DNA from: an uncultured virus (IMG/VR IMGVR_UViG_3300032219_000873)
Lineage: Duplodnaviria; Heunggongvirae; Uroviricota; Caudoviricetes
DNA: 64,000 bases
Reading direction: 5' to 3' (one strand)
IMG/VR virus record: IMGVR_UViG_3300032219_000873
Every line of letters begins with the position of its first letter. Position 1 is the first letter of the stretch. The position numbers and the translations under genes were made by a program. A model generated the notes under the pieces. That model was not told the DNA's origin, did no database searches, and saw only the letters and a program-made list of their open reading frames with translations. Below are positions 14,492-62,900 of the stretch, one piece after another.

Positions 14492-14537
14492 CCTAGCTTC
14501 CGTTCCCAGTTCTCCCCTTTCTGGGAACGGGGCTAGG
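14492..14537 (+). ncRNA. Intergenic hairpin with anti-SD-like loop
   Basis: CCTAGCTTCCGTTCCCAG-TTCTCCCCTTT-CTGGGAACGGGGCTAGG. Confidence 0.55.
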
Positions 14538-14552
14538 TCCTTTAGGACTGCA

Positions 14553-14819
14553 ATGGCTGAAACCCCATCAAACCAAAAGCTTTACGCTATGGTCGTCATG
14601 CAAGCCAAGGCTAAGTACCGTATTTATCCGTCACCTGGCGCATCCCACTGGGTGCACAAGCGGTACCTAGAACTGGGCGGCAAGTTTATTGACCCAGTTG
14701 TAGAAAATGAGCGTAAACGATTTATTAGACGTATGATAGAGGCACGTGAGGGTCACCGCCCTGACGAGAAAGACCGCGACTTCAAGCACCGCGGACACCG
14801 CCTAGACAAGAAACACTAA
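14553..14819 (+). CDS. Basic hypothetical protein
   Basis: YPSPGASHWVHKRYLELGGKF. Confidence 0.75.
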   Translation: MAETPSNQKLYAMVVMQAKAKYRIYPSPGASHWVHKRYLELGGKFIDPVVENERKRFIRRMIEAREGHRPDEKDRDFKHRGHRLDKKH

Positions 14820-14824
14820 AAAAT

Positions 14825-16555
14825 ATGAGTGGCTCCTACTTCGATTTCTCACCGCCCAGCTATAGAGCGGCGTCATCTGACCTTACTATCTCCATTTCCC
14901 CTCTGGGATTGGTGGAGCTTGCTGATGAAGAATTTGAAGTACACGGCCCTCGCCTAAACCGCTACTCGCTCAACTGGGCTATGTACCTTGGTCACCACTG
15001 GGGTTACCGCCGTGAGCAGGGCGAAATGCAGATTGCGGTTAACTACTACCGCGCATTCATTGACTACCTAGCCCGATTTACCTTTGGGCATGGAGTTCAC
15101 TTCCGCTCACCAGCCAGCACCGAGCACATCGTTCCTGACCTACTTGAAAGAGTATGGGAAGTAGACAACGACAAGACCAAGATTCTGCTAGAAATGGCGC
15201 AAATTGGCGGCATTACTGGTGACTGTTTTGTAAAGATTGCTTACGAAGAGGCATGGCAAGACTCTATTGGTCGCTTCCACCCTGGCCGTGTACGTGTTCT
15301 TCCTCTTAACTCAGCTTTCTGTTTCCCAGAGTTTCACCCTCACGACCGTACTCGTCTGCTTCGTTTTAAGCAGAAGTACCGTTTCTGGGGCACCTCACTA
15401 GAAGGTACTCGTCAGGTCTTTACCTACACCGAGATTCTTACGGACGACATTATTGAGGAGTACATTAACGATGAGCTCATTGATTCGCGCCCTAACCCGC
15501 TGGGCCTTATCCCTGTTGTACACATACCAAACACACCTGTCTCTGGTTCTCCTTGGGGCCTATCTGATGCTCATGACATTATTTCTCTAAACAGGTCTTA
15601 CAACGAAATCTCTACTGATATCGCGGATATCATCAACTATCACGCTGCTCCAATCACTGTTATCGTGGGTGCAAAGGCTTCTAATCTTGAGAAGGGCGCT
15701 AAGAAGGTCTGGGGCGGTCTGCCAAAGGACGCTCAGGTATTCAACCTAGAAGGCGGTGGCTCTGGTATTCAGGGCGCTCTGCAGTACCTAGAGATGATTA
15801 AGCGCTCCATGCACGAGCTGATGAACATCCCAGAGTCTGCTCTAGGACAGTCTCAGCCTGTATCTAACACCTCTGGTGTAGCGCTTTCTATCCAGTACCA
15901 GCCTCTAATGAACCGTTGGACTCACAAGGTCGCACAGTATAAAGAAGGTCTACAGCGTATTAATGAGCTTATTATGCTCAACCTCGTTGTAAAAGAACCT
16001 GAGACCCTTGTATACAACCCTGCTGTAAACGGCCCTATTAAGCCAGGTCAGGTTGAGCGTCTAGACCCAGACGACCCAATCACTTACATCAACTACGCAC
16101 ACTTCCCTCCACCGCTACCTCTAGACAAGCTTGTACTACTTAACGAGCTTGCACAGAAGGTATCGATGGGTCTGGAGTCTAAGCACGGCGCACTACGTGC
16201 CCTTGGCGAGGAGTTCCCAGATGAGAAGCTACGCGAGATTCGTCAGGAGCTTGTTGACGAGGCACGTGCTGAGGGTGCTTTGAACTTGATGCGTGTACAG
16301 ATTCAGAAGCAGATTATGGATATGACTGGCATGATGGCTGGTCCTGACGGCACTGCTACTCCTATCGACCCAATGATAATGGGTGGTGGCGATGTTCTAG
16401 GTGATGGTCAAACTGGTCCTGTGGACCCAGCAACAGGCGCTGACCCACAGACTCAGATGGAAAACCTCGCTGCAGAGGTAGAGATTAGACAAGGTTTGTT
16501 GAACGACGCTTACAACACTGAGTTGCCAGTGCGTTCTACAATAGATAAAGACTAG
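14825..16555 (+). CDS. Portal protein (SPP1 gp6-like)
   Basis: Position, size 576 aa, NPLGLIPVVHIPN...GLSD, SNTSGVAL motifs. Confidence 0.9.
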   Translation: MSGSYFDFSPPSYRAASSDLTISISPLGLVELADEEFEVHGPRLNRYSLNWAMYLGHHWGYRREQGEMQIAVNYYRAFIDYLARFTFGHGVHFRSPASTEHIVPDLLERVWEVDNDKTKILLEMAQIGGITGDCFVKIAYEEAWQDSIGRFHPGRVRVLPLNSAFCFPEFHPHDRTRLLRFKQKYRFWGTSLEGTRQVFTYTEILTDDIIEEYINDELIDSRPNPLGLIPVVHIPNTPVSGSPWGLSDAHDIISLNRSYNEISTDIADIINYHAAPITVIVGAKASNLEKGAKKVWGGLPKDAQVFNLEGGGSGIQGALQYLEMIKRSMHELMNIPESALGQSQPVSNTSGVALSIQYQPLMNRWTHKVAQYKEGLQRINELIMLNLVVKEPETLVYNPAVNGPIKPGQVERLDPDDPITYINYAHFPPPLPLDKLVLLNELAQKVSMGLESKHGALRALGEEFPDEKLREIRQELVDEARAEGALNLMRVQIQKQIMDMTGMMAGPDGTATPIDPMIMGGGDVLGDGQTGPVDPATGADPQTQMENLAAEVEIRQGLLNDAYNTELPVRSTIDKD

Positions 16556-16655
16556 TTTTAAACGAATTTCGTGGAATTAATTTGGTTTAGATACCGAATT
16601 AGTTGAAAATGCTAAAAACTAGTTACGTAATAGGAACGGTCAACGAGCTACTTAT

Positions 16656-17453
16656 ATGGAAAACGACCAAGTCAACGAAAAGAGTACATTTATGGACGAA
16701 ACTACGCAGGCCCCAGAAACCAACGAGGCTGAAGTTACAAACAACGAGGCGGAGACTACTGAGGTGGCAAGTAACCTCTTCACTGCAGACGACATTGCTA
16801 AGGCACGTGCGCAGGAGAAGGAGAAGCTTTACCCACAGGTAGAGAAGCTAAAAGAGGAGCTAACCCTTCTTAAGCAGCGTGAGCAGGAACGCGAAGCTGA
16901 AGAGGCTCGCCGTAAGGAAGAGCGCAGAAAGCGCGAAGCCGAGGCAGCTAAAAAGAAGAAGGAAGAAGAAGAAGCAGAACTAGAGGTTCGCCAGCTGCTT
17001 CAACTTAAGGAGCAAGAGTGGCAGTCCCAGCTTGAGGCCGAGCGTCTTGAGCGTGAGAAGGCATTTGCACTCCTAGACCAAGAGCGCCGCTTCCAGGCCC
17101 TGATGCAGTATCGTCAGGCAAGACTGGAGCAGGAGCGCGAGAACATCATCCCTGAACTAATCGACATGATTCAGGGCAATTCCGAAGATGAGATTGAGCA
17201 GAGCATCTCGGCATTGAAAGACAAATCTGCAAAGATTTTCGACTCTGTCGCACAAGCTAGTGTGCAGACAAGAAAAGACATGGTAGGAGCACGGGTAACC
17301 GTACCTGCCTCAGGACCCCTGGATAATGACTCGGAGCAACGTTCGTTTACCCCTGACAGTATTAAAGACATGTCAATGGCTGACTACGCGAAGAACAGAG
17401 CCAAGCTTCTTGGCACAGGCAACAACCGTGGACAGGGTTTGTTCAACAACTAA
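16656..17453 (+). CDS. Capsid scaffolding protein
   Basis: Acidic coiled coil before MCP; ends IKDMSMADYAKNRAKLLG. Confidence 0.8.
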   Translation: MENDQVNEKSTFMDETTQAPETNEAEVTNNEAETTEVASNLFTADDIAKARAQEKEKLYPQVEKLKEELTLLKQREQEREAEEARRKEERRKREAEAAKKKKEEEEAELEVRQLLQLKEQEWQSQLEAERLEREKAFALLDQERRFQALMQYRQARLEQERENIIPELIDMIQGNSEDEIEQSISALKDKSAKIFDSVAQASVQTRKDMVGARVTVPASGPLDNDSEQRSFTPDSIKDMSMADYAKNRAKLLGTGNNRGQGLFNN

Positions 17454-17489
17454 TCAAACAACCTAACGACCGAAAGGACTTGAACCACT

Positions 17490-18602
17490 ATGGCTTCAGG
17501 TATTACTGGTACTGGTCAGCTAGCGTCCGCGCCAACCGCGTACTCGGGTTCTAACACCCAGCTGTCCCAGGCTATTCAAACCATCTGGTCAAAGGAAATT
17601 CTGTTCCAGGCGATGCCTATTCTTCGCTTTGAGCAGTTTGCTGTCAAGAAGACCGAGCTCGGTGTAGCTCCTGGTCTTCGTGTCAACTTCCTTCGCTACA
17701 AGAACTTCGCAGTGGACCCAACTCCACTTACCGAAGGTGTACGTATGCAGACCAACTCACTAACCGCAGAGCAGATTGCTATTACCGTTGCTGAGCACGG
17801 TTACGCTACTGCTGTTTCGGAGCTGTTGCTAAACGCTTCCTTCGACGACGTAATGGCTTCGGCTTCACGTCTTCTAGGTCGCCACATGGCACAGTACCTA
17901 GACCTACAGGCTCGTAACACCCTGTCTGCAGCTACTTCAGCTGTATTCGGTTACGACCGTTCAGGTATCACTGGTGGCGCATTCACCAACTACGACGAGG
18001 GTAGCAAGGCTACCTCCATCGCTAGCGTTTCCGCTAACCACAAGCTCACCACTGGTGCTATCAAGGATGCAGCTCTTACCCTTGCTGGTAAGAACATCCC
18101 ACGCCTAGGTGAGACCTACGTACAGTTCATCCACCCAAAGCAGTCTCGTGACCTTCGCTCGAACCCAGAGTTCATCGAAGTTACCAAGTACGCTGCTCCA
18201 GGTAACTTCATGCTTGGTGAGATTGGTCGTCTATACGACGTAGTCTTCATTGAGACCACTCAGGTGAAGAAGATTGCCTCGGGTACCGCTGTAAACTACA
18301 GCTCGCTTGTAGGTGCTCCAGAGAACGCAGGAGTTGTTCCTGTAAAGGCAAACACCGCTCCTGGTTCTGGTGGAAACCCAGAGCAGCCAGGCGCAACTGC
18401 CCCAACTGGCACCACTGCAACTGACGTTTACGAGTCCATCATGATTGGTGACAACGCATTTGGTCACGCAATCTCCCTACCAGTTGAGCTCCGTGACGGT
18501 GGTGTTCTAGACTTCGGTCGTGAGCACGCACTAGCATGGTACGCCATCTGGGGTCTAGGTGTTATCACCGACCAGGCTATTGTCAAGGTTTACACCGCGT
18601 AA
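17490..18602 (+). CDS. Major capsid protein, N4-gp56 family
   Basis: PLTEGV, EHGYA, FIHP, GEIGRLYDVVFIET, DFGR motifs; GAAAGGA RBS; biased codon use. Confidence 0.92.
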   Translation: MASGITGTGQLASAPTAYSGSNTQLSQAIQTIWSKEILFQAMPILRFEQFAVKKTELGVAPGLRVNFLRYKNFAVDPTPLTEGVRMQTNSLTAEQIAITVAEHGYATAVSELLLNASFDDVMASASRLLGRHMAQYLDLQARNTLSAATSAVFGYDRSGITGGAFTNYDEGSKATSIASVSANHKLTTGAIKDAALTLAGKNIPRLGETYVQFIHPKQSRDLRSNPEFIEVTKYAAPGNFMLGEIGRLYDVVFIETTQVKKIASGTAVNYSSLVGAPENAGVVPVKANTAPGSGGNPEQPGATAPTGTTATDVYESIMIGDNAFGHAISLPVELRDGGVLDFGREHALAWYAIWGLGVITDQAIVKVYTA

Positions 18603-18614
18603 TAGCTAAAAACC

Positions 18615-18658
18615 TTGGGTGGGGGCGTTGCTTCGGACGGAGCTGTGCCCCCACCCAA
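18615..18658 (+). terminator. Hairpin after major capsid gene (stabiliser or attenuator)
   Basis: TTGGGTGGGGGC...GCCCCCACCCAA; no U tract. Confidence 0.55.
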
Positions 18659-18689
18659 CACAAACATTCAACACTAGGAGAAATACACC

Positions 18690-19064
18690 GTGGCAACACA
18701 AAAGACAAGTCCATTGGACGCAACTGGCAAGGCAGCAGAAGACGCCGCAAAGCGCAACGCAGCCGAGCTACGTAAGAGACAAGACGAGATTTCAATTACT
18801 CGTCAGGCAGAGGCAGACCTACTAGAGACTGCTGTCTTTGACCCAAAGAGACCAGACCAACCACTTCTCATCGACGAAATTGAAGAGGTCGGTGTATCAG
18901 TAAACGGTAACGACATGGTTGTTATCCGTACCATTACTGACATCGAAGACATGACCTATGGAGTCGGAAACTCGTACACCTTCAAGAGTGGTGTTAAGTA
19001 CTCCGTCCCACGAGACCTTGCAGACTACTTAGAGGGTCTCGGCTACATTTGGCGACCTAACTAA
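18690..19064 (+). CDS. Hypothetical head-associated protein
   Basis: AGGAG RBS; directly follows MCP. Confidence 0.8.
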   Translation: MATQKTSPLDATGKAAEDAAKRNAAELRKRQDEISITRQAEADLLETAVFDPKRPDQPLLIDEIEEVGVSVNGNDMVVIRTITDIEDMTYGVGNSYTFKSGVKYSVPRDLADYLEGLGYIWRPN

Positions 19065-19079
19065 ATCGCTTAATAAGCT

Positions 19080-19131
19080 GCCCGCTTCGCTGGTTCCCGC
19101 CCTCCTCCCAGCGGAGCGGGCTTTCTCGTTT
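19080..19131 (+). terminator. Terminator-like hairpin with anti-SD-like loop
   Basis: GCCCGCTTCGCTGG-TTCCCGCCCTCCTC-CCAGCGGAGCGGGC-TTTCTCGTTT. Confidence 0.65.
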
Positions 19132-19189
19132 GCGCTGTATTTATCCTCATAATAAGGGAACATAGAGATAGAAATTTTACGGAGGTTTT

Positions 19190-20245
19190 GTGGCCACTCT
19201 GTCTTCGCTGGTTGAGCGGGTACGCTTTGAGCTTGGCGACCTACCCAAATCATTCGTCACTCAGTTTCAGTCTGACATTTCAACTAACCGCTACCGCTTA
19301 AACTACGCTCCAGTAGACGCTCTTCAAGTCACCGTCTTTAAGAATGGCGTGGACATCTCTGATACCGTAGAGATTGAAGAGCAAACAGGCGTGATGGTTT
19401 TGGAAGAACTGCCTAACTTTGACGATGAATTTACGGTAACTGGTAACTACTACAGGTACTTCACCACTCGTGAGCTAGAGAACATCGTATCTAGCGCCCT
19501 AGAGCAGCACGCAGGCCGTGACACTGACTCACTAGGCCGTAAGATTACCGTAGCTAACTTACCTAGTATCGAAGAGTACCCTGTGTCCTTGTACGCTACT
19601 ACCTTGGCGCTCTACACCTTAGCTACCGACGCTTCGTTCGACATCAACGTTTTCGCCCCAGACGGCGTCACTATCCCTCGTTCTGAGCGTTATCGCCAGC
19701 TTATGGAGATGATTGACTCCCGTAAGGAGCAATACCGTGAGCTGTGTACTCAGCTGGGCATCGGCTTGTACAGCATCGACGTGTTCACCTTCCGTCGAAT
19801 CAGTAAGACTACCAACCGTTACATCCCTGTTTACCGCCCACAGGAAGTGGACGACAGGTCTTACCCTCAGCGTGTGGACTTACCACTGTCTACCTATGGC
19901 GACGCACCTACCGCATGGCCTACAGAGGGCGGCGAGCTAACTGCCTACCAGGGTATCGCTTACTCAGGTACCGTAACCTTCAGCGGTACATTCACAGGCC
20001 AGTCGTTTGTTGCTCGTCTCATAAACCAAAGAGGAAGCAAGTACATTGTTCAGAACTTCGCTCTGACCGTAACTGCCGTAGGCACTGCTCATACCGCCAC
20101 TATTTCTTTAAGCGCAGACCAAACCTCAAGGATTGCTCGGCGCACTTACTGGCAGATAGCGTCTGTTAATGACACTACTGGCGAGATAATTGAGCTAAAG
20201 GGCGGAAACTTCCTAACCGACAGGGTAGGAACAGCGGTACTATGA
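19190..20245 (+). CDS. Probable head-tail adaptor/neck protein
   Basis: LVERVRFELGD N-terminus, position after capsid. Confidence 0.6.
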   Translation: MATLSSLVERVRFELGDLPKSFVTQFQSDISTNRYRLNYAPVDALQVTVFKNGVDISDTVEIEEQTGVMVLEELPNFDDEFTVTGNYYRYFTTRELENIVSSALEQHAGRDTDSLGRKITVANLPSIEEYPVSLYATTLALYTLATDASFDINVFAPDGVTIPRSERYRQLMEMIDSRKEQYRELCTQLGIGLYSIDVFTFRRISKTTNRYIPVYRPQEVDDRSYPQRVDLPLSTYGDAPTAWPTEGGELTAYQGIAYSGTVTFSGTFTGQSFVARLINQRGSKYIVQNFALTVTAVGTAHTATISLSADQTSRIARRTYWQIASVNDTTGEIIELKGGNFLTDRVGTAVL

Positions 20246-20544
20246 GTGGCTTTTACCCCGAGACTAACGTTGACCCCCTGTATCCTGTAGTAGATGTAGA
20301 TTTTCTCCCTGCGGTTCCGCAGAGAGTTAGCTCCAAACAAGTCATACCACTCGTCTCATACACCCACTCTCAGAGCGCAACTTCTTCGCAGTGGGTAGTC
20401 ACGCATAATCTTGGGTTCAAACCAAACGTCACTGTATTCGACAGTGCAGGGGATATTGTGGAAGGCCACATTATCCACAACAGTGTTAACCAACTAACCC
20501 TGCAGTTCTCGGCAACCATGTCGGGCGTTGCTCAACTATCCTAA
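20242..20544 (+). CDS. Virion accessory protein
   Basis: WVVTHNLGFKPNVTVFD motif. Confidence 0.7.
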   Translation: MSGFYPETNVDPLYPVVDVDFLPAVPQRVSSKQVIPLVSYTHSQSATSSQWVVTHNLGFKPNVTVFDSAGDIVEGHIIHNSVNQLTLQFSATMSGVAQLS

Positions 20545-20553
20545 GGAAATTAA

Positions 20554-21979: not shown

Positions 21980-23887
21980 TTGCCAAAAAGATTCCTCACA
22001 CCGCCCCAACTCCCCAGTGGAACTAACCTTCCATCTGCGGGAGCGGCTGGTGCGCTCTTTTTTAAAGCTGACGAGAATAAGCTCTATGTTCACGACGGAA
22101 CTAGCTGGGTTGTTTCTCAAGGTCCTACGGGTCCGACTGGTGCAACTGGCCCAACAGGTGCCGCGTCAACTGTCACTGGCCCTACTGGTGCTACTGGAGC
22201 CGCTGGCTCACAAGGTGTACAAGGAGATACGGGACCAACAGGGGCTACTGGCGCTCAGGGAACCACTGGAGCAACGGGCCCTACTGGGCCTATAGGCCCT
22301 CAGGGTGACACTGGACCACAGGGTGGCCAAGGCGTTCAAGGTAACGCTGGAGCGACTGGCGCTACAGGAGCTACAGGACCTACTGGCGCTACGGGCCCTA
22401 CTGGAGCTAAAGGAGACGCTGGTAACAACGGTGCCACTGGTGCTACAGGACCTACTGGTCCAGCTGGTTCCAACGGAACTATTGGTGTTGATGGTGCAAC
22501 TGGCCCCACTGGACCAACGGGTGCACAAGGGCCTGAAGGACCTCAGGGTGTTCAGGGAAACGTAGGAGCAACTGGCGCTACAGGTCCAACAGGTGCGACT
22601 GGTACTCAGGGACCTACTGGACCAACAGGTGTGCAGGGCCAAACAGGACCAACAGGTGCTCAAGGTATTCAGGGACCAACTGGACCTCAAGGTGCGTCTG
22701 GCGATAGCTCAACTCACTACCACTACAACGCTCGAACTAACACCACAAGCGGTGACCCAACAACAAACCAGCTCGGTTGGAATAACGCGACTCAAATTAG
22801 TTCAACGGCTCTTCGAGTAAATCACATAGACGCAGATTCACAAGATGACAGCATTTTTCTTCATCTGATTAACCAGTACGACAACCTTATTATTCAAGAC
22901 AAAAACAATGCGGCTAATTTTCAAACTTGGGAAGTGTCAGGAACACCAACACTAAACGCAACTTGGGACGAGTTCCCAGTGACTCTAGTTAATTCATCGG
23001 GTACTGGCACAACAAACTTCCCTAGCAATCATCCTTTACTTCTTATCATCGTTTCCGTTGGAAATGTTGGACCTATAGGACCCACTGGTGCCACGGGTGG
23101 AGTTGGTCCAACTGGTCCTACTGGTTCTGTTGGCCCCACAGGACCAACTGGTGCAGCTTCGACAGTTACAGGCCCTACAGGTGCTCAAGGTCCAACAGGG
23201 CCTACAGGAGCTCAGGGCCCTGAGGGTGCTCAAGGTGTACAAGGTAGCGTTGGTGCTACAGGCCCAACTGGTGCAGCATCCACTGTTGTCGGACCTACTG
23301 GCCCTACAGGAGCAACTGGTGCGGCGTCAACAGTTACTGGGCCTACAGGTCCTACTGGTGCTACTGGCGCAGCCTCAACCGTTACAGGACCTACTGGTCC
23401 TACGGGTGCTAACGGAACGCAAGGACCCACTGGACCAACGGGTGCACAAGGCTCTCAAGGTTCGCAGGGAATTCAAGGCCCAACAGGTGCTACAGGAGCA
23501 ACTGGTGCAACTGGTGCCACGGGTCCAGGTATTGCTGGAGTAACGGCGACCGCCACTGAACTTAATTATTCCGTTGGTGTTACTTCTGCGATTCAGACTC
23601 AGCTGAACGGTAAGCTTTCTGCAACAATCACAAGCCCTGCTACTGGTCAGACTATCCAGTACAATGGAACCGCTTGGGTAAATGCAGTTGCTGGTAGCAC
23701 CACCACTGTTTCAGAGAATGCACCATCCACTCCATCTACGGGTGACACTTGGTTTAAGTCTTCTACTGGTCAGCACTTCATCTATTATGATTCTTACTGG
23801 GTAGAACTCGGAGTAGGTCCTGCGGGACCTGCAGGTGCTGCAGGTGCCGATGGAGATGCCGCTTACCACCCATTCTTAATAGGATAA
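21980..23887 (+). CDS. Collagen-like (Gly-X-Y) fibre protein
   Basis: Two long GPT/GAT/GPQ triplet runs flanking a globular domain. Confidence 0.9.
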
Positions 23888-23897
23888 AGGAATAACA

Positions 23898-24233
23898 ATG
23901 CCATTTGGATACAAGGTTCTAGGGCAGGTAGCCCCTGCAAACACAAGCATTGCTAATGCTTACACGGTGCCAGCTGGAAAAACGGCAATTGTGTCTAACA
24001 TTGCGGTAGCCAACGTCACAGGAACTGCTGCAGTATATGAAGTTTATGTACGAATCAACGGGGCGGCTTCAGCAGCTTCGAATGCTTTGGTTTTTGATGC
24101 AAGCGCAGCGGCTAACAGCACCACGATGATTCAGGGAAACATCACCCTTTCAGCTGGTGACATTATCAGCGTGCAAACAGGTACTTCAAACGCAATTACC
24201 TTTCACGTCTTTGGAACTGAGGTGACTGACTAA
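23898..24233 (+). CDS. Small beta-rich virion adaptor (paralog of 26772..27101)
   Basis: YKVLGQVAP...YTVP...FGTE. Confidence 0.75.
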   Translation: MPFGYKVLGQVAPANTSIANAYTVPAGKTAIVSNIAVANVTGTAAVYEVYVRINGAASAASNALVFDASAAANSTTMIQGNITLSAGDIISVQTGTSNAITFHVFGTEVTD

Positions 24234-24553
24234 TGGGCATCAGTGTTATTGGCGGAGCGACAGCCTCATCTTCCCCTATAAAAAGCATTCAGCGTGGCGT
24301 AACTACCAGCGCTACCACTGTAACCATTTCAGCGGTAAATACGGCAAAAAGCTTTGTCACTTCGTTTAGCAATGCCAGCACTGGAAATGTTAGCGGCTCA
24401 AACTCAAACACCCCGAGCGGAAACGCAGGCTACACTTCTAGCGTAAATTTTGGAACAGACTGGGCCGCTAAAGCTTTTGGGGCTTACCTTTCTAGCAGCA
24501 CTCAGTTAGTGACTACAGGGGCAGTAAGATGGGAGGTCATCGAATACGTATGA
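24233..24553 (+). CDS. Small structural protein
   Basis: IKSIQRG...VTISAVNTAKS...WEVIEY. Confidence 0.7.
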   Translation: MGISVIGGATASSSPIKSIQRGVTTSATTVTISAVNTAKSFVTSFSNASTGNVSGSNSNTPSGNAGYTSSVNFGTDWAAKAFGAYLSSSTQLVTTGAVRWEVIEYV

Positions 24554-24882
24554 GTAGATTTTTTTATGCAAAGTTTAAAAATGGCCTTGCAGTTGAAGGT
24601 ATAGAAACTTTTTCAGAAATAATTTCACCTGATTTAATTCGGGTTAATTCTTTACCTGAAGGTTTTTTGTTTAAAAGGTATGAAAACGCAGCTTGGGTAG
24701 AAGTTCCTAGTCAGAAAATTGCACAAATAGATTTCGAAGGTAAAGTAACCTACACCACTAGAACTTTTTTTCCAGAAGACTTTTCTAGTGACTACGTAAT
24801 TGCTGAAGAAGCAGTTGAGGTTGGATGGACTTTTATAAATGGCACTTGGCTAGAACCAGAGGTGACTGATGGCAGCGATTGA
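24550..24882 (+). CDS. Hypothetical protein, AT-rich (fibre-assembly-like)
   Basis: ATGA coupling; VEVGWTFINGTWLEP. Confidence 0.65.
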   Translation: MSRFFYAKFKNGLAVEGIETFSEIISPDLIRVNSLPEGFLFKRYENAAWVEVPSQKIAQIDFEGKVTYTTRTFFPEDFSSDYVIAEEAVEVGWTFINGTWLEPEVTDGSD

Positions 24883-25237
24883 TTTTCCTAATAGCCCGAC
24901 TACAGGTCAGACCGTAGTTGTAGGTCAGCGAACTTGGTCATGGAGTGGGTCCGTATGGGAGAGCGATAATGACCGTGCGTTTGTCCGCACAGTGTCCGTC
25001 AGCGCTCCGTCGGCCCCTGTTGTAGGAGACGAGTGGTTTAACTCTGAAACAGGCCGTCTTTATACTTATTATGATTCTTATTGGATAGAAATCGGAACGT
25101 CTGTTTCTGGGCAAGACGGTCTTTCCGCCTATGAGGTGGCTGTAGCCGACGGGTTTGTAGGAACAGAAGAAGAATGGCTAGCAACGCTAGTCCCAACAGG
25201 AAAAGCCATCGCCATGGCTCTAGTCTTTGGAGGATAA
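24869..25237 (+). CDS. Fibre anchor-like protein
   Basis: [19 protein letters not shown]...YYDSYW; GLSAYEVAV..GF.GTEEEWL. Confidence 0.75.
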   Translation: MAAIDFPNSPTTGQTVVVGQRTWSWSGSVWESDNDRAFVRTVSVSAPSAPVVGDEWFNSETGRLYTYYDSYWIEIGTSVSGQDGLSAYEVAVADGFVGTEEEWLATLVPTGKAIAMALVFGG

Positions 25238-25597
25238 ATGGCCGCCCCAAACATTGTCAATGTAACCAGCATCTACGGCAGAACTGTTCACGTTAACCTA
25301 ACCACGTCATCGCAGTCCATTGTCTCAAACTCTGCTAGCAGTAATAAGGTGTTTAAGATTAACACCATCATTGTGGCTAACGTAGACGGCACCGCAGCTG
25401 CTGATGTAACAGTTAACTACAGCAATGCGGGCACAACCTTTGCGCTCGCCAGCACTATCTCTGTGCCTGCTGACTCTACTTTAGTTATTCTAGACAAGGC
25501 CAGCTCAATTTACCTAGAAGAAAATGACGCTATCGCAGCACTTGCTTCAGCTAACGGAGACTTAGTTATTCACATTTCTTATGAGGAGATTGCTTAG
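25238..25597 (+). CDS. Small beta-rich virion adaptor
   Basis: MAAPNIVNVTSIYG...IYLEE...SYEEI. Confidence 0.75.
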   Translation: MAAPNIVNVTSIYGRTVHVNLTTSSQSIVSNSASSNKVFKINTIIVANVDGTAAADVTVNYSNAGTTFALASTISVPADSTLVILDKASSIYLEENDAIAALASANGDLVIHISYEEIA

Positions 25598-26469
25598 TGC
25601 CAAGAAATGCTGGAAGAATAGGCCCGACCGCTACCAGAGCTGGTGGCGGTATTTGGGCTTTGAACCAGCAGTATCAACAAGTTAGAGATGGAACATGGTA
25701 TCCCCCCGTAGTAACAGGGGGGACGCTTACTTCAGACGCAACTTACTACTACCGCACATTTACTGGCAATGGCACCTTAGAAATTTCTGGAAGTGCCGTG
25801 ACTATGGACTACTTAGTAGTTGCTGGTGGTGGCGCAGGAGGGCACAGTAACGTTGATAGTCGACAGTCTTCAGGAGGTGGTGCTGGTGGGTTGCTCCAAG
25901 GCACCCTCCTCAATTTAGCGGCTGGGTCTTACCCTGTAGTCATTGGAGCAGGAGGAACTGCTCCAGCAACCGATGGAAACAATACCACCGCTTTTACCCT
26001 AACCGCTTTAAAGGGAGGTAAGGGCGGCGGTGGCGGCGGAGGTAACGGTGGCGGCGGTAGTGGCGCTTACGGCTCAGGTGGAGGTCAGGGAGGTTCGGGC
26101 GACAACATACCAACGGCTAATAACGCCCAAGGAACTTCAGGACAAGGATTTGCTGGTGGTTCTGCTACTTTTGGTTCTGGCGACGCTGCTGGTGGTGGTG
26201 GTGGAGCTGGTGGAGCTGGTGGAAACGCTTCGGGTACTACCGCTGGAACTGGTGGTGCTGGAGTAACTTCGACTATCAGTGGCGCAAGCGTAGGGTATGC
26301 AGGCGGCGGCGGTAACAACAGCGACTTAGGTTTCGGTGGTGGATTTAATGGGTCTGACCCTAACCGAGCGGGTATGGCTAACCGTGGTGGTGGTGGAAAG
26401 GGTACTACAGGAGCTGGTGGTTCTGGAGTGGTCATTGTGAGATATCTTAGAAGCATAGTAGGTGGATAA
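25597..26469 (+). CDS. Glycine-rich fibre/receptor-binding protein
   Basis: YLVVAGGG...[10 protein letters not shown]. Confidence 0.8.
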
Positions 26470-26771
26470 TGGCAGCATTAGATTTCCCAAATTCCCCGAC
26501 GACAAACCAAGTATTTGTCTCAGGTGATGGTCGCTCATGGACATGGACAGGGTCTACTTGGAATGCTGTTCTTGTAGTGTCGCCTACTGGTCCAACTGGA
26601 CCGACTGGAGCAGCCTCAACGGTTACAGGGCCTACTGGTCCTACGGGTCCTGCTGGCACTACAGGTGCTACTGGCCCAACTGGTGCGGCGTCCACCGTTA
26701 CTGGCCCAACTGGTGCTGCAGGTGCCGCTGGTGAAGCAAGCTTTAACTCATTCTTACTATTAGGAGCGTAA
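26469..26771 (+). CDS. Short collagen-like anchor protein
   Basis: [16 protein letters not shown] repeats; FNSFLLLGA. Confidence 0.8.
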
Positions 26772-27101
26772 ATGCCAACCGTATACAAAGTACTAGCTCA
26801 GTCAGCGCCTAGCGCAACAACCGCAACAGACATCTACACTGTGCCCAGCTCTACTCAGACTGTAATCAGCACCATAGTAGTTGCTAACCGTGCAGCAAGC
26901 GACGCTACTTATCGTATTGCGGTGCGACCAAACGCAGCAACTCTAGCAAACCAACACTACGTTGCATACGATGTGACCGTAGGAGCTTCGGACTCTACCA
27001 ACCTTACTTTAGGAATCACTGTAGACGCTGCTGACGTAATTACGGTGTACGCATCTACTGCCAACTTGAGCTTTAACATCTTCGGAACCGAAATCTCCTA
27101 A
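26772..27101 (+). CDS. Small beta-rich virion adaptor
   Basis: YKVLAQSAP...YTVP...FGTEI. Confidence 0.75.
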   Translation: MPTVYKVLAQSAPSATTATDIYTVPSSTQTVISTIVVANRAASDATYRIAVRPNAATLANQHYVAYDVTVGASDSTNLTLGITVDAADVITVYASTANLSFNIFGTEIS

Positions 27102-27109
27102 GGATTCTC

Positions 27110-33194: not shown

Positions 33195-33464
33195 ATGCCT
33201 AGATTGGCAAACATTCAGGTCCGCAGAGACACCGCGGCTAACTGGACCTCAGCTAACCCTACCCTTGCAGCTGGTGAGCTTGGGCTAGAAACTGACACCC
33301 TTAAGCTAAAGCTAGGCAACGGCTCCACTGCGTGGACTTCCCTAGCGTATGTTGGTTCGGGCACCGCAGAGAACGCAACTAAGTTTGATAACCGCAAGCT
33401 TTATGTGCAGTCCTCAGCGCCATCTTCTGGCATGGTTGCAGGAGACCTCTGGATTAAGAATTAA
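33195..33464 (+). CDS. Fibre N-terminal domain protein (Mtd-N/hyaluronidase-N-like)
   Basis: IQVRRDTAANWTSANPTLAAGELGLETDT.KLKLGNGSTAWTSL. Confidence 0.8.
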   Translation: MPRLANIQVRRDTAANWTSANPTLAAGELGLETDTLKLKLGNGSTAWTSLAYVGSGTAENATKFDNRKLYVQSSAPSSGMVAGDLWIKN

Positions 33465-37985: not shown

Positions 37986-37987
37986 TA

Positions 37988-46050: not shown

Positions 46051-46052
46051 TC

Positions 46053-52229: not shown

Positions 52230-54457
52230 TGGCTATTTACGGTAACGTAATTTATGGCGCTGGTGCACAATATGGTCAAGCGTCCAACTTACCTTACTCT
52301 GTTGAACCACTGACTGCTAAAGCACTTTGGTATGACACTGTCCTACTTAACTGGGTTCCTTCTCAGAGCCCCTACTCTGCGTTTCGACTACTGCGTAACC
52401 AGACCCACTTACCAGAGACTCCTGAAGATGGCCTTCGCCTTGTTGATTGGACTTTCAACAACCCAAACTCGGAAGAGCTAAAGGGGCAGAACCAGTACGT
52501 AGACAACACCCAGTTAGTATCAGGAAAGTACGCTTACTATAGGGTGTGGCTTCTAAACGCTGATGATTCATGGGTAGTTGCAGGAGAAGCAGCGGTTCTT
52601 GTACCAAAGCAATTTGGAACAACTGCAATCGGAGACAAGACTTCTCACAAGAAACTTATGGAGCTACTTCCACGAGTTATTACAGGTACTGGTCGTTCTC
52701 CATTTGACCCTGTGGATTACGACTCTGACCTCTCAAAGTTTTTAGAGTCGTTCTCGTTTACTTATGACGAGCTGCTGACTTACATTGAGCTCCTTCATCC
52801 TGAAACATACGGTGACTACGGAAGCGCAACCTCATTAGTGCTAAAAAGTCTTGAGCTAGGTGTTACTCCAGAGCTTCAGACCATTACGCAAACTCACATC
52901 AAGTCTGTTCGTGAAGCTGTATACGCATATCAACGAAAAGGGACTCTGCTTGGCTTAGGTGCATTTGTTGAAGCAGTTTCAGGTTTTGAGCCAGAGATTA
53001 CTACCTCGCCAAACATTTTACTGTCAATTGAAGACAGCTCTTTTTACAAAGGCACTGGCTCGTGGCAACCCCTAAACGGAGTGACTTTAACTTCTGATAG
53101 CTCTGGCATTTACTCTGAAGAGCCTGCTTCTTGCGACACTACATACGTTGGAAAAGCTGTAGTAGGAACTGCTGGCGCTTCAATCATTAATGGTCAGACT
53201 GACCCTATTAAGTTGGGTGCCCCAGTAACTAACGGCACTAAGTACTTGTTTAGCTTTAAAGCTGCAACTGTGTCAGGCACGATGTCTATTACACCAAAGA
53301 TTCACTGGTTTAACTATCTTGGTGACAAAATTGCCACTTCTACGGGAACAGCGTACACCGCCACAACTTCTTGGGGAACTGGAAGTATGCAGGCGTTTGC
53401 TCCTGGATATAGCAAGACTATTACGGCATATCAAGCTACTAGCTCAGTTACCACCATTACTTTTAAAGAGGTTCACCCATTTGTTATTGGGAATTCTATT
53501 CTTATTTTTAATAATGCAGATGGTCTAAACGGTACCTACACGGTTACTGCTGTAACCAGCACCACTCTCTCGTTTGCAAGAAGCGGAACTGCAACTTCTA
53601 GCGAGCTGATTACCTCTGGTACAGCTCAACTTAGCACTTGGAGCTATGCCGAGTCTGCAACTTACGCTGCTATAGAACTTGTCTTTGGAAGTACTGGAAC
53701 GGTGTACGTTGACGTTTTGCAACTTACTACTGACCTCAGCGGTAACTACCGAGACGCACGTTGCATCTGGCTGACCTTGAAGCCCTCCAAGATTAACTGG
53801 GTAAAGAACCCTTCGTTTTTTCCATCAGGCACAGCTTGGAGTGTTACTGCTACAAGTAGCACTCAAGTGACCTCTAGTTTAGTTGGAGTAAACGCAGGAC
53901 TCAATGCACTTCGTGTCACCCCTCTTACCTCAGGCACAACTGTTTTGAGTACAAAGACTTCAGGCGGCATTCCAAACCTAGGAAATTTTTACACCTTCTC
54001 TATCTACGCAAAGCTAGCTAGCGGCACCAAAGCGGCTACCTTGGTACTAAACGCCCTCAACAGCTCAACTGACGCCGTAGTAGAAACTGCCAGTGCTAAC
54101 GTCACGTTGACTAACAACTGGGCTCGTTACTCAGTCTCTTTATTCGTTCCAATCACCTCAGTCGACATTAAGCTAGAGGGTCGTGTGCAGATTGTTAACG
54201 GCACAGCCACGATTGACTTTGACGCTGCTCAGATTGAGCAGTCATTTGGTCCAACTGATTACTTCGACGGTTCCCTACCAGGGACGTCAGGCGCGGGTTG
54301 GTACGGCACTGCTCATCAGTCAGAGTCCTACATCTACCCTGTCAAGAGCGCTCGTATCTCAAGGCTGTTGAACGAGATTGAAAAATACTTACCCGTTACA
54401 ACTTCTTACAAAGTATTTACTTTGAGTGGCTTAGAGAAAGCCAAGATTACATACTAA
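52229..54457 (+). CDS. Baseplate wedge/tail protein I-like with carbohydrate-binding-like domains
   Basis: YQRKGTLLGL; NW.KNPSF, TFSIYAK, DAAQIEQ, YFDGS. Confidence 0.7.
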   Translation: MAIYGNVIYGAGAQYGQASNLPYSVEPLTAKALWYDTVLLNWVPSQSPYSAFRLLRNQTHLPETPEDGLRLVDWTFNNPNSEELKGQNQYVDNTQLVSGKYAYYRVWLLNADDSWVVAGEAAVLVPKQFGTTAIGDKTSHKKLMELLPRVITGTGRSPFDPVDYDSDLSKFLESFSFTYDELLTYIELLHPETYGDYGSATSLVLKSLELGVTPELQTITQTHIKSVREAVYAYQRKGTLLGLGAFVEAVSGFEPEITTSPNILLSIEDSSFYKGTGSWQPLNGVTLTSDSSGIYSEEPASCDTTYVGKAVVGTAGASIINGQTDPIKLGAPVTNGTKYLFSFKAATVSGTMSITPKIHWFNYLGDKIATSTGTAYTATTSWGTGSMQAFAPGYSKTITAYQATSSVTTITFKEVHPFVIGNSILIFNNADGLNGTYTVTAVTSTTLSFARSGTATSSELITSGTAQLSTWSYAESATYAAIELVFGSTGTVYVDVLQLTTDLSGNYRDARCIWLTLKPSKINWVKNPSFFPSGTAWSVTATSSTQVTSSLVGVNAGLNALRVTPLTSGTTVLSTKTSGGIPNLGNFYTFSIYAKLASGTKAATLVLNALNSSTDAVVETASANVTLTNNWARYSVSLFVPITSVDIKLEGRVQIVNGTATIDFDAAQIEQSFGPTDYFDGSLPGTSGAGWYGTAHQSESYIYPVKSARISRLLNEIEKYLPVTTSYKVFTLSGLEKAKITY

Positions 54458-57155: not shown

Positions 57156-57174
57156 CATTTCCTGCGGAGGGCAG

Positions 57175-58425
57175 ATGGCGTACGACAACGAGTATCGGTT
57201 AGTTAGCAAAGTAATTGCTGACCGAGTAATCATCCCTGTTATTGAGCAGGGCATCAGCGACGACTGGATTGTGGATGACGACCTACGTCGTATCTGGAAG
57301 TTCGTTCGTGAGCACTATGCCAACTATCGTGAAGTGCCGTCCATTATTGCCGTCACAGATAACTTCCCTAACTTCCGAGCCATCAAGGTTGAGGACAGTC
57401 TTGAGTACCTAATTGACAAGATGGTTGAGTTCCGTCGCAATCGTTTGACCCGAAATGGTCTAGAGACAGTTGTCGACCGCATGACTCAGAATGACCACGA
57501 GTCTGCACTGACTGAGATGAGTAAGACCATTACGTTGGTCAACGCTCAAGGTGTCGTAGGTACAACTCACATTGACGTCACTAAAAACTCAGACAAGTTT
57601 TGGGAAGCCTACGAGACACTGCAGAGCAATAAGCTTCTTGGAGTACCTACTGGGTTTGAGAAGATTGACGAAGCAACTGCAGGTTTGCAAGGCGGTCAGT
57701 TAATCACCATGATTGCTCCTCCTAAAACAGGTAAGTCCCAGATTGCTCTTCGTATGGCTGCTAACGTTCACGAGGCTGGCTTGGTCCCTATGTACCAGTC
57801 GTTTGAGATGAACAACCATGAGCAGGAGCAGCGCTACCTGTCCATGGCATCACATGTCTCAAGCAATCGTTTGCGTCGTGGCCAGCTAACTGCTTCTGAA
57901 GAAGACCGTGCGCGTAACTTTACAGAAGACTTAAAAGACAAGCACCCACTCCACTTTGTGGATGCCATTAACGGCTTGACTATTGACTCGCTAGTAGCCA
58001 AGGCAGAGCAGCTAAAACCAGACGCTCTATTTGTCGACGGCGTATATTTGATGCTAGACCAAGTTACTGGTGAGGCAAACACTCCACAGGCGTTGACCAA
58101 CATCACTCGTGGACTGAAGCGTGTTGCTCAGAAGCTAGACATTCCTGTAGTTATTACAACTCAGACACTTCTGTGGAAGATGCGTGGCGGAAAAGTGACC
58201 GCAGACTCTATTGGTTATTCGTCTTCGTTCTTCCAAGACTCTGACGTAATCCTTGGTCTTGAGCCAATTGAGGAAGACGAGAACATGCGTCTGCTAAAGA
58301 TTGTTCAGTCACGTAACTGCCCACCAAGCGAAACTTCGATTACTTGGAACTGGGATACAGGCTGTTTCCACGATGAGTCCAAGGCATCTACTTGCAAGTA
58401 CTGCTCTCCGTGGGGAATGGTATGA
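57175..58425 (+). CDS. dnaB: DnaB-like replicative helicase
   Basis: GVPTGF..ID, APPKTGKS, SFEM, FVDGVYL, QDSD. Confidence 0.93.
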   Translation: MAYDNEYRLVSKVIADRVIIPVIEQGISDDWIVDDDLRRIWKFVREHYANYREVPSIIAVTDNFPNFRAIKVEDSLEYLIDKMVEFRRNRLTRNGLETVVDRMTQNDHESALTEMSKTITLVNAQGVVGTTHIDVTKNSDKFWEAYETLQSNKLLGVPTGFEKIDEATAGLQGGQLITMIAPPKTGKSQIALRMAANVHEAGLVPMYQSFEMNNHEQEQRYLSMASHVSSNRLRRGQLTASEEDRARNFTEDLKDKHPLHFVDAINGLTIDSLVAKAEQLKPDALFVDGVYLMLDQVTGEANTPQALTNITRGLKRVAQKLDIPVVITTQTLLWKMRGGKVTADSIGYSSSFFQDSDVILGLEPIEEDENMRLLKIVQSRNCPPSETSITWNWDTGCFHDESKASTCKYCSPWGMV

Positions 58426-59429: not shown

Positions 59430-60948
59430 GGCCGTCGCAAAGATGGTTGAAAACAAGCGCATGCTTGTTGCATATGAAATGGGTCTGGGAAAGACCCCTA
59501 TGACTATCGCTGCAATCGAAGAGCTTGAGGTTGAAGGACCAACCCTTGTATTGTGCCTAGCTTCCCTTAAATACCAATGGCAAAAAGAAGTTGCCAAGTT
59601 CACAGATAAAACCGCCATAGTTATTGACGGAACTCCTAAGCAAAGAGCCGAACAGTACGCTCAAGTCAACGACCACAGCTACACCGTTATGAATTACGAG
59701 CAGATTGTCAACGACTGGGACATTGTCAGGGCTATTCCTTTCAAAGCAATCATCTGCGACGAAGCCACTGCCATTAAAGGCTTCAGAGCTAAACGAGCTA
59801 AAAAAGTTAAGGAACTAGCAAAGCCAATTGCAATCAGGTTTGCTCTAACAGGGACTCCTATTGAGAACGGTAGGCCCGAAGAGATTTACAGCATTATGCA
59901 GTTTGTAGACTCTACTGTTCTGGGTCGCTTTGACTTGTTTGACCAAACGTTTATTGTCCGCAATCACTTTGGCGGAGTCCAGCGCTATCGCAACTTAGCT
60001 ACCCTTCACAAAGTTTTATCTGACCACGCCGTGCGTAAGTCTCAGAAAGATGAAGACGTAAAGCCCTATTTGCCAGACGCTATTTACCGAGAACCATTAC
60101 TTATCTCTCTGGACTCAAAGGCTCAAAAAGTATACGACTACATTTCTACAGACTTATTAGAGCTTCTAATAGATGCGCGTGAAACATTTGGCTCATCGTT
60201 TAACCTGGCTGCACATTACGGGCAGATGTCTGCTGATGACCCCATGAACGAGATGCGGGGGCAAGTCATGTCTAGAATTACCGCCATGAGGATGCTCTGC
60301 TCAAGTCCACAAGTTCTTCAAACCAGTGCTGCAGAGTTTGCTTCTCACTCAGGTAAAGGCAGCGCTTACATCCACTCTTTGGGGGACAGGCTAGAAGAAT
60401 TAAATAAGTCTCCCAAGCTAGACGCCACGATTAGTTATCTACAAGACCACTTAGACATTGACACAAGTTATAAAGCTGTTGTATTCAGCTCCTACATAAA
60501 GTCAGTAGAAGAGATAGTCTCAAGGTTAAATGCTTCAGGTTACGAAGCAGTGGCGTACACAGGAAGGATGAACGCCAGTGAAAAAGAGTCCGCTAAAGTC
60601 CATTTCCAATCTAGTTCAGATTGTCGTGTTCTTGTCAGCAGTGATGCTGGTGGTTACGGCGTGGATTTGCCTCAGTCTAATCTTCTTGTTAATTATGACC
60701 AGCCTTGGAGCGCTGGTCTCGCTGTGCAAAGAAACGGTCGCATCAACAGGGCGTCAAGTACGTGGGCAACTATCACGATTCAAGACATCCTTGTCAAAGG
60801 AAGCATTGAGCAACGACAGTACGACACGCTGAAACAAAAATCTAACATTGCTAACGCTATTCTTGATGGTGAGGGTATAAACTCCAAGGGAGGAGTTGAT
60901 TTGACTGTAGGAAGTCTTATAAGCTTCTTAACGGACAAGTTACTGTAG
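59395..60948 (+). CDS. SNF2-family helicase
   Basis: EMGLGKT, CDEAT, LTGTPIEN, QRNGRINR. Confidence 0.92.
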   Translation: MFTGTLKPYQTEAVAKMVENKRMLVAYEMGLGKTPMTIAAIEELEVEGPTLVLCLASLKYQWQKEVAKFTDKTAIVIDGTPKQRAEQYAQVNDHSYTVMNYEQIVNDWDIVRAIPFKAIICDEATAIKGFRAKRAKKVKELAKPIAIRFALTGTPIENGRPEEIYSIMQFVDSTVLGRFDLFDQTFIVRNHFGGVQRYRNLATLHKVLSDHAVRKSQKDEDVKPYLPDAIYREPLLISLDSKAQKVYDYISTDLLELLIDARETFGSSFNLAAHYGQMSADDPMNEMRGQVMSRITAMRMLCSSPQVLQTSAAEFASHSGKGSAYIHSLGDRLEELNKSPKLDATISYLQDHLDIDTSYKAVVFSSYIKSVEEIVSRLNASGYEAVAYTGRMNASEKESAKVHFQSSSDCRVLVSSDAGGYGVDLPQSNLLVNYDQPWSAGLAVQRNGRINRASSTWATITIQDILVKGSIEQRQYDTLKQKSNIANAILDGEGINSKGGVDLTVGSLISFLTDKLL

Positions 60949-60956
60949 GAGGGAAC

Positions 60957-61397: not shown

Positions 61398-61408
61398 GGA
61401 GAGTACTT

Positions 61409-61633: not shown

Positions 61634-61647
61634 CACAAAGAAGTAAC

Positions 61648-62136
61648 ATGCCAGGAATGCGTAGCGAAGAGGACATCCTCAAAGCGTTTGAGGGTCTGGA
61701 CACCGTTCCAGGCTCGCGTAAGCCACGCCGTCCTGACTCACCTGTCGCACAAAAGAAACGTGCACAAGCTTTCGGGGAGTCTAATGGGTGGGATGAAAAC
61801 CCACTTATTAAAACCCTGAATGGAGTGGAGACAGAGCTGTTTACTGTAGGAGCGCTAGCACAGGCCCTAGAGAAACAGATTGTCACCATCCGACTGTGGG
61901 AGCGAAAGGGATACATCCCCGTAGCTCCTTACAGACTCCGCTCAAAGCAACTGAATGGGCAAAAAGTAAACGGCAACCGTGTTTACACACGGGAACTTAT
62001 CGAAATTACTATCGAAGAGTTTGCAGCTCGTGGACTTTTGGGTTCAGCCCGTGTAGAGTGGAAACTGCTAGGCGATTTAACAGAGGCTCTTGTAGTCCGA
62101 TGGAAGACCGCTGTAGCTAAACCAAAAACCGAGTAA
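61648..62136 (+). CDS. MerR-like HTH DNA-binding protein
   Basis: FTVGALAQAL....TIRLWERKGYIP...RVYT. Confidence 0.8.
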   Translation: MPGMRSEEDILKAFEGLDTVPGSRKPRRPDSPVAQKKRAQAFGESNGWDENPLIKTLNGVETELFTVGALAQALEKQIVTIRLWERKGYIPVAPYRLRSKQLNGQKVNGNRVYTRELIEITIEEFAARGLLGSARVEWKLLGDLTEALVVRWKTAVAKPKTE

Positions 62137-62165
62137 CGTCTCCGATTAGAAAGAACATAACAACT

Positions 62166-62837
62166 ATGGCTATTATTGAGCCCGAAATCGATGCAAACGA
62201 CTACTTCATTAACGATGAGGTAGAGGCAGCCCCTAAGCACGGCACCACCGTGCAGGCAGGTTGGGGTGCCATCACCGCAGTTTCCAAGCCAAAGCGTGAG
62301 GCTGGAGACTACCCTACTGACTTCAAGTTCACCGAGCAGGCTCAGCTTGTCCGCTTTATTGAGGACGAGCCGTTTGCGGTGTACAAGCAGCACTGGGTAC
62401 AGGTACCAAACGACAACGGAGCCGTCTCATGGCGCTCATTCGTATCGCTAGGAGAAGACGACCCGCTAACTGTAATCGCTGGTCTGACCCCACGTGCCAA
62501 AGCTGCATTCAACATCTTGAACCTGTCTTCCGAGACTCCAGAGGTTCAGGTGCTGACTGCTTCTGTAACACTTGCACGCCAACTACAGGCTGCTAACGAG
62601 GACCCCCGCCGTGGACCTCTGAGCAAGTACTACTGGGCAATCTCACGTCAGGGAACTGGCCGTGACACTCAGTACACTGTTGAGCGTGTGCGAGCTTCCG
62701 AGCTCGCTGATGAGTGGGACCTAGACTCAGAGAAGATAGATGCTGTCGCAGCAGTCGCCCCTCGCTACGACGCGAAGTCTATCTACGTCGCACCTTACGA
62801 GGAAAACCTCAAGGTTGCACGCCAGCTCGTAAGCTAG
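62166..62837 (+). CDS. Single-stranded DNA-binding protein (gp32-like)
   Basis: VRFIEDEP...YKQHWV; ISRQGTGRDTQY; sits before the polymerase. Confidence 0.7.
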   Translation: MAIIEPEIDANDYFINDEVEAAPKHGTTVQAGWGAITAVSKPKREAGDYPTDFKFTEQAQLVRFIEDEPFAVYKQHWVQVPNDNGAVSWRSFVSLGEDDPLTVIAGLTPRAKAAFNILNLSSETPEVQVLTASVTLARQLQAANEDPRRGPLSKYYWAISRQGTGRDTQYTVERVRASELADEWDLDSEKIDAVAAVAPRYDAKSIYVAPYEENLKVARQLVS

Positions 62838-62849
62838 GTTACACACCAC

Positions 62850-62900
62850 GGGAGAAGCCACAATTCATCCCTCCTCTCCGTATTGTGGCTTCTCCCTCTT
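62850..62900 (+). ncRNA. Perfect 15-bp hairpin with anti-SD-like loop
   Basis: GGGAGAAGCCACAAT-TCATCCCTCCTCTCCGT-ATTGTGGCTTCTCCC. Confidence 0.6.

Follow-up and report, generated by a model that had tools for sequence, protein, structure and literature searches.

We herein describe intergenic hairpins whose large, unstructured loops consist almost entirely of pyrimidines, found in a 64,000-nucleotide (nt) stretch of the uncultured virus record IMGVR_UViG_3300032219_000873 (hereafter, the window), which is part of a freshwater or lake myovirus lineage with genomes of about 90 kb. Three such hairpins, starting at positions 14492, 19080 and 62850, lie on the + strand, and their occurrence is real and non-random. 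The hairpin at 19080, which its sequence marks as an intrinsic terminator closing the capsid gene block, has a loop that is nearly invariant across related phages, and hence the loop has a function; the loop is under strong purifying selection, stronger than that on its stem. We tentatively read the set as actinobacterial-style boundary hairpins, in which a large C/U-rich loop would recognise G-rich, Shine-Dalgarno (SD)-like RNA by base pairing, and we favour this reading in the awareness that it may well prove wrong. The earlier note on this DNA was partly right in this respect: the loops matter, clearly so at 19080. The three hairpins, and two ordinary terminator-like hairpins of the window that serve as contrast cases, are the following (lengths of proteins in amino acids, aa).

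14492-14537, + strand: hairpin between a 143-aa gene (after the large terminase gene) and an 88-aa gene (before the portal gene); loop UUCUCCCCUUU, no U-run
19080-19121, + strand: predicted intrinsic-terminator hairpin; 14-bp stem, loop at 19094-19107 with the core GCCCUCCUC, T-rich tail at 19122-19133
62850-62896, + strand: hairpin between a 223-aa gene (12 nt upstream) and the DNA polymerase gene (21 nt downstream); no U-run
4706-4726, + strand: ordinary terminator-like hairpin; 3-nt loop, T-run present
11099-11125, + strand: ordinary terminator-like hairpin with a 3-nt loop

All three large-loop hairpins were found where the earlier note had placed them and fold as it had claimed. The predicted folding free energies (dG) are -29.7 kcal/mol for 14492-14537 (z -6.4; 11-nt loop at 14510-14520), -29.3 kcal/mol for 19080-19121 (z -3.8; 14-nt loop UUCCCGCCCUCCUC) and -26.8 kcal/mol for 62850-62896 (z -8.7; 17-nt loop UCAUCCCUCCUCUCCGU at 62865-62881), and no shuffle out of 200 reached the stability of any of the three. 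When hairpins were defined strictly (at least 10 bp, a loop of 8-20 nt with at least 85% of its letters in one base class, dG <= -17), a scan of the + strand returned three pyrimidine-loop hairpins and no purine-loop hairpin, whereas 400 dinucleotide shuffles gave a mean of 0.022 pyrimidine-loop hairpins and a maximum of one, so that no shuffle reached three. Among the listed strong hairpins of the + strand, only these three combine a large unstructured loop with an intergenic position; each starts 12-16 nt past a stop codon, on a stem of about 12-18 bp. Their loops are 88-100% pyrimidine and hold five to nine C each (C content 45% at 14492, 64% at 19080 and 53% at 62850). A U-run follows the stem at 19080 (TTTCTCGTTT in the window), and none follows at 14492 or 62850. 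Folding also bore out the 3-nt loops that had been ascribed to the ordinary terminators at 4706 and 11099.

The proposal that the hairpins form one dispersed family did not hold, as their stems and loops are unrelated and not copies of one element; what they share is a design and not descent, and the exact 16-mer of the 19080 loop is confined to one genomic context, apart from five non-hairpin matches among 80 listed. The hairpins had also been said to follow highly expressed genes, which fits 19080, situated one gene past the major capsid gene, but not 14492 and 62850, which follow genes without a named function. Words shared with the 3' tail of 16S RNA, which is of the CCUCCUUUCU type, are present in the loops, with the reservation that the CCUUUCU ascribed to the 14492 loop is complete only if two stem bases are counted.

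A capsid-based scan of viral contigs confirmed at least 598 related stretches among the 600 matches listed, and the relatives used for comparison included five complete genomes of 89-98 kb, four of them with terminal repeats. The 19080 hairpin lies behind a 124-aa gene that follows the major capsid gene, with a 351-aa gene downstream, and a hairpin was found between these two genes in all 68 relatives with a readable gap. The loop core GCCCUCCUC is kept in 63 of the 68 (42 of 47 distinct sequences) while the stem covaries: in the alignment of the 47 distinct sequences, 98.2% of the cells are paired and 13 of 17 pairs show compensatory changes, none of 500 shuffles matched any of the five measures used, and slid controls were only 35-59% paired. 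Entropy amounts to 0.19 bits in the loop core versus 0.65-0.72 in the stems. The length of the loop stays within 12-15 nt, and in most relatives a T-run of the (C)CTTTTT form stands 3' of the stem. At least 120 viral contigs contain the 16-mer of the loop letter for letter; among the 80 matches listed, 75 are hairpins of the 19080 type (stems of at least 11 bp, 14 of them distinct), 74 have GGAGG and a start codon no more than 100 nt downstream, and 5 are stemless. In four of the five complete relatives GCCCUCCUC occurs once per genome, on one strand only. We also noted that the stretch between the terminator and the next ribosome site (19122-19180) is conserved, with CTGTATTT followed by GAGAACATAGA- or GAGATGAT-like letters, and that the late genes beyond it may have their promoter here; a search of the window for recurrence of this motif gave an unconvincing three matches versus 0.72 expected.

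In this phage family, C/U-rich loops are found repeatedly at four intergenic positions, all of them conserved. At 14492 the hairpin is kept in the relatives, but its large pyrimidine-rich loop only in 2 of 40, namely the closest relative (L001), with the loop sequence of the window, and a second one (L026), with a different loop of 8 nt; the loops of the remaining relatives are mostly 3-7 nt long. At 62850 a hairpin with dG <= -14 is present in 56 of 59 relatives, and its loops vary in sequence and length, down to 4 or 6 nt in some lineages; the 28 distinct loops of at least 8 nt are composed of 37% C, 41% U, 14% A and 8% G, and the flank just downstream of these hairpins has 40% G+C and 21% G. 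Free variation of the loops among homologs, named by the earlier note as a sign against its interpretation, is hence found at 14492 and 62850 but not at 19080. The fourth position lies directly after the major capsid gene, where the window itself has a hairpin of another kind.

18615-18658, + strand: hairpin after the major capsid gene; non-pyrimidine in the window (inner helix of 5 bp, 4-nt loop GGAC)

At this homologous site 54 of 76 relatives carry a conserved pyrimidine loop of 11-13 nt of the UACUCCUUCUU type; in the remaining 22, as in the window, the loop is of another kind, most often a UUCG, GCAA or GUUA tetraloop. The 41 distinct large-loop sequences align with 91.2% of cells paired and compensatory changes in 12 of 15 pairs, and the Streptomyces phages BRock and LuckySocke also have a C-rich-loop hairpin directly after the capsid gene. 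The window and the five complete relatives together have 14 large unstructured loops in intergenic positions after + strand genes, of which 13 are at least 85% pyrimidine, and the bias is shown to be specific to the mRNA strand; these loops occupy homologous sites and thus do not count as 14 independent cases. Metatranscriptome contigs from relatives, in small shares of two freshwater runs, correspond mainly to 17.1-18.8 kb and almost never extend beyond 18960; one of them stops at 18654, within the capsid-gene hairpin, although assembled contigs cannot show 3' ends or levels.

In the reading that we favour, a long GC-rich stem would present a large, unstructured, C/U-rich and G-poor loop. The hairpins without a U-run (14492, 62850 and those after the capsid gene of the relatives) would probably act as leaky stops or as 3'-end-protecting or processing hairpins, and the exposed loops would pair with G-rich, SD-like RNA without a chaperone. 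Such pairing is plausible though unproven. The design recalls the C-rich loops of the actinobacterial 6C small RNA (sRNA), called B11 in mycobacteria and corresponding to the Rfam family RF01066. According to the 6C report (PMC6486639), these loops bind G-rich ribosome sites, including that of dnaB, without a chaperone and thereby repress the targets, the L3 loop is a 12-nt pure pyrimidine run, and actinobacterial sRNAs are characterised by C-rich stretches that stay unpaired in hairpin loops. The likeness comprises stable hairpins and C-rich loops of about 12 nt consisting of pyrimidines, which in 6C pair without Hfq or ProQ; the difference is that 6C is a free-standing, multi-hairpin host gene, whereas the phage elements are single hairpins at mRNA 3' ends or between cistrons. 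A search of the whole window against Rfam gave no 6C match at the gathering score, the only match being a tRNA-Leu, and none for the hairpins of 18590-19200 at E <= 10, with chance-level hits alone on the hairpins. The phage hairpins fit this design of the phylum without belonging to the 6C family.

A second likeness is to the C-rich stem-loops of Streptomyces, which, according to Panek et al. (2008; PMC2422843), lie at gene 3' ends with loops of 10 nt or more, were proposed to be alternative, possibly Rho-related, terminators, and interchange with classical terminators between species. The phage loops of 11, 14 and 17 nt match this size, and an interchange is seen in the phages too, after the capsid gene (54 versus 22 of 76) and before the polymerase gene; the Streptomyces elements differ in having stems of 3-5 bp and more than 60% C, compared with phage stems of 12-18 bp and 45-64% C. 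The 19080 hairpin is also like a Rho-independent terminator, being a GC-rich stem shortly past a stop codon and followed by a U-run, but unlike the ordinary terminators of the window, with their 3-nt loops, it has a sequence-conserved loop of 12-15 nt, and 14492 and 62850 lack the U-run altogether. Pyrimidine motifs in 3' regions or loops that pair with SD sequences are also found in other Gram-positive systems, such as the icaR 3' untranslated region, RsaE/RoxS and LhrC. Unlike these, the phage loop pairs weakly with the capsid gene's own ribosome site AGAAAGGA (-4.3 to -8.2 kcal/mol), and an icaR-like pairing was rejected. This site (17468-17489 in the window) is itself kept as AGAAAGGA in nearly all relatives and fits the far end of a 16S tail of the CCUCCUUUCU type rather than the GGAGG core.

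The best candidate partner of the 19080 loop is a site of the phage's own DnaB-like helicase gene.

57166-57172, + strand: GGAGGGC, ribosome-binding site of the DnaB-like helicase; best start-region complement of the 19080 loop (GCCCUCC) and candidate trans target

Abundant late transcripts of the capsid operon might in this way damp the translation of replication genes late in infection; alternatively, the loops might pair generically with SD sites of other messages. The duplex of the 19080 loop with the helicase start region (-16.6 kcal/mol) ranks first of 96 start regions in the window, second of 142 in the near-identical relative G002 and first of 137 in the independent relative G005. Among the relatives, 27 of 61 distinct helicase start regions contain GAGGGC, compared with 6 of 779 when all start regions of six genomes are counted. 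In a comparison of loop and helicase ribosome site that spanned 16 genomes, one lineage (G004/G007) has a C-to-U change in the loop facing a G-to-A change in the ribosome site. We regard the predicted helicase pairing as a lead, not a finding. The helicase site itself, GAGGGC(A) at 57160-57175 of the window and in loci L171-L250, is conserved and unusual.

Several observations weigh against pairing as the role of the loops. The helicase was singled out after the window had been seen, its covariation comes from one lineage only, it ranks merely 13 in G003, 44 in G004 and 41 in G006, and three genomes (G008, G014 and G016) combine a canonical or near-canonical loop with a non-matching helicase site. 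Neither the window nor the complete relatives contain a perfect 9-nt complement of the loop core, and sites with one mismatch are at chance level in the window (14 versus 12.2 expected). The nine invariant loop letters exceed what pairing with an SD sequence needs, and a protein or host partner would fit them equally well. At 62850, CUCC or CCUC occurs in 9 of 28 distinct loops versus 9.2 expected when each loop is shuffled (P = 0.65), so that these anti-SD words are not enriched beyond composition; as the C/U-rich composition is kept there, it is the composition that is selected and not the word. Moreover, tetraloops have replaced the pyrimidine loops at three of the four positions, at which the latter are thus dispensable. 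An SD-like word stands at -18 to -4 in 60 of 96 predicted starts; since most phage genes are thus SD-led, an anti-SD sponge would strike the phage's own genes too.

Two rivals are serious, namely a host factor, RNase E or another, and a loop-specific protein. The former, somewhat unlikely in our estimate, holds that a host factor with a preference for single-stranded C/U-rich RNA lands or cuts at the loops, most concretely an actinobacterial RNase E that would cleave the loop and thereby process the polycistronic message at gene boundaries, with Rho, ribosomal protein S1 or a KH-domain protein as alternative readers. It predicts just what is seen at 62850, where composition is kept (C+U 78%, G 8%) and sequence and length are not, and the exchanges of C-rich stem-loops for terminators described in PMC2422843 mirror those between pyrimidine loops and tetraloops here. 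Mycobacterial RNase E is reported to favour C-rich single strands and to cut just 5' of cytidines, often in intergenic regions (PMC10641625). However, a reading based on composition leaves the nine invariant letters of the 19080 loop unexplained, and a cut in the loop would undo a protective hairpin. As for Rho, its loading needs RNA far longer than the 11-17 nt of these loops.

Under the second rival, which we hold to be unlikely, a protein of the phage or the host would read the loop in a sequence-specific manner, with the 19080 hairpin as its operator, and would tune termination or read-through into the downstream late genes. An invariant loop on a freely covarying stem is the classic signature of a hairpin read by a protein, as with lambda N and boxB or the MS2 coat protein and its operator hairpin, and the want of a perfect RNA complement of the loop core in the phage genomes points the same way. 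Against it, a Pfam scan of 97 window proteins revealed no RNA-binding family, about half of these proteins matching no family at all, and the same design with different loops at other positions favours a more general reader.

Returning to pairing, a bolder form of that reading would make the capsid-operon terminator double as a riboregulator: an invariant, 6C-like loop, made in very large amounts late in infection, would pair with GGAGGGC-type sites of replication genes, the helicase first and perhaps host G-rich sites as well, and so switch translation from replication to assembly. We consider this improbable. More speculatively, loops resembling the 16S tail might be decoy substrates of host toxins that cleave the anti-SD tail, for example those of the MazF-mt11 type, which cleave at CACCU (PMC12274833).

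Pairing in cis, proposed by the earlier note as a pseudoknot between loop and ribosome-binding site, is quite improbable. In this model the loop would pair, on read-through transcripts, with the ribosome site of the next gene and step down or couple its translation; at 19080 the proposed partner is the following.

19181-19185, + strand: GGAGG, ribosome-binding site of the 351-aa gene

The complementarity itself stands, as CCUCC of the 19080 loop matches this GGAGG, CUCCU of the capsid-gene loop in relatives matches AGGAG of the next gene, and the distances of 12-70 nt would permit a pseudoknot. However, when the pyrimidine loops were matched one by one to all start regions of the same genome, the loop's own downstream start region ranked only 12 to 70 among 84-117, and the duplex of the 19080 loop with its GGAGG (-9.4 kcal/mol) ranked 23 of 85. 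Nor is there covariation: of 58 distinct relatives, only one lacks the GGAGG at the 19181-type site, and of the five relatives without the loop core, four retain it and the fifth reads GGAGA; downstream GGAGG or AGGAG is likewise unchanged where loops change or become tetraloops. The conserved stretch at 19122-19180 also argues against the cis model, since, if it is a promoter, many transcripts of the next gene would not carry the hairpin. Collectively, neither a specific cis pseudoknot nor a single hairpin family is supported; the same is true of leaderless phage genes, given the 60 SD-led starts of 96, and of a takeover of host translation, which is speculative. The notion that these are plain terminators or stabilisers, in which a pyrimidine loop only avoids self-structure, start codons and SD-like words, draws on the tetraloop replacements at three positions but is very improbable, as it accounts neither for the large loop size, nor for the absence of purine-only loops (none versus three), nor for a conservation at 19080 that is far higher in the loop than in the stem.

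C-rich loops are the only known chaperone-free RNA route of translation control in Actinobacteria, and they have been studied so far in a few host sRNAs. Here the same design is found at the mRNA ends of very abundant uncultured lake phages (at least 598 related contigs), and the 19080 loop, conserved more tightly than the surrounding protein-coding DNA, is a clean RNA motif. Should the loop act in trans, the terminator would incorporate a timing switch of the phage; should the loop be bound by a protein or cut by an RNase, it would mark how these phages set the ratio of capsid to neighbouring gene expression. Either way, we see no evidence for a takeover of host translation. In the literature searched, we came across no description of conserved pyrimidine loops in the terminators of actinophages; a catalogue of 10,006 candidate structured RNAs from IMG/VR exists (PMC10690425) and may include the 19080 hairpin.

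The genes around the hairpins were named by profile searches, which, besides tail sheath, tube and baseplate proteins and a primase, identified the following.

12385-14001, + strand: large terminase
14825-16555, + strand: portal
17490-18602, + strand: major capsid protein
57175-58425, + strand: DnaB-like helicase
from 62918, + strand: family-A DNA polymerase

The + strand carries every long open frame across the 64 kb. A megablast search with positions 14000-20300 of the window revealed no DNA-level match among isolated phages, and the capsid protein is closest to those of BRock, LuckySocke and their kin (61-62% identity over the full length). PASTA, NlpC/P60 and M23 domains are found among the window proteins, a combination that would fit a Gram-positive, probably actinobacterial, host; the phage most likely infects Actinobacteria, as judged from its encoded proteins. 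The DNA runs that contain the stretch bear freshwater or lake metagenome labels, and the gene order of the capsid region is kept in 80 relatives.

A further element, which the earlier note had counted as a fourth case of a pyrimidine loop, was found to exist and to have a large pyrimidine-rich loop of 16 nt.

4416-4498, + strand: tRNA-like element; acceptor stem (G3:U70) and T arm present, normal anticodon arm missing

Its middle hairpin exposes the loop UCUUAAUUCCUUUCUU at 4443-4458. ARAGORN made no call at 4416, its only call in the window being the tRNA-Leu at 5479-5552, and in cmscan just the two ends of the element match the transfer-messenger RNA (tmRNA) model, with 18.4 bits versus a gathering score of 47. 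An element of this type is kept in the closest relative, G002 (oriented, about 60275-60345), where the T arm has changed in a compensatory way and the loop differs but is again rich in pyrimidines, and another relative, G006, has a different element of about 80 nt (oriented, about 4000-4110) with tmRNA-like ends and a terminal CCACCA. Elements of the 4416 type may be miniature tmRNA-like or tRNA-like phage RNAs.

Additional features of the window include an Hsp20 small heat-shock protein (3567-4094), an 89-aa protein with Mtd_N, the N-terminal domain of the major tropism determinant (33195-33464), and two HNH endonucleases (37979-38269 and 38943-39338). A collagen-repeat protein and three glycine-rich-domain proteins, probably tail fibres, are encoded at 21980-30261, a region of strong positive GC skew. 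The first 700 nt of the window are gene-poor, with few open reading frames, all on the minus strand, and hold a cluster of G/C-run hairpins, for example at 1-31 and at 429-473 (arms CCTAGGGGGG and CCCCCCTAGG); a corresponding stretch lies at 53500-54000 of G002 (oriented), and the cluster may be a regulatory or origin region.

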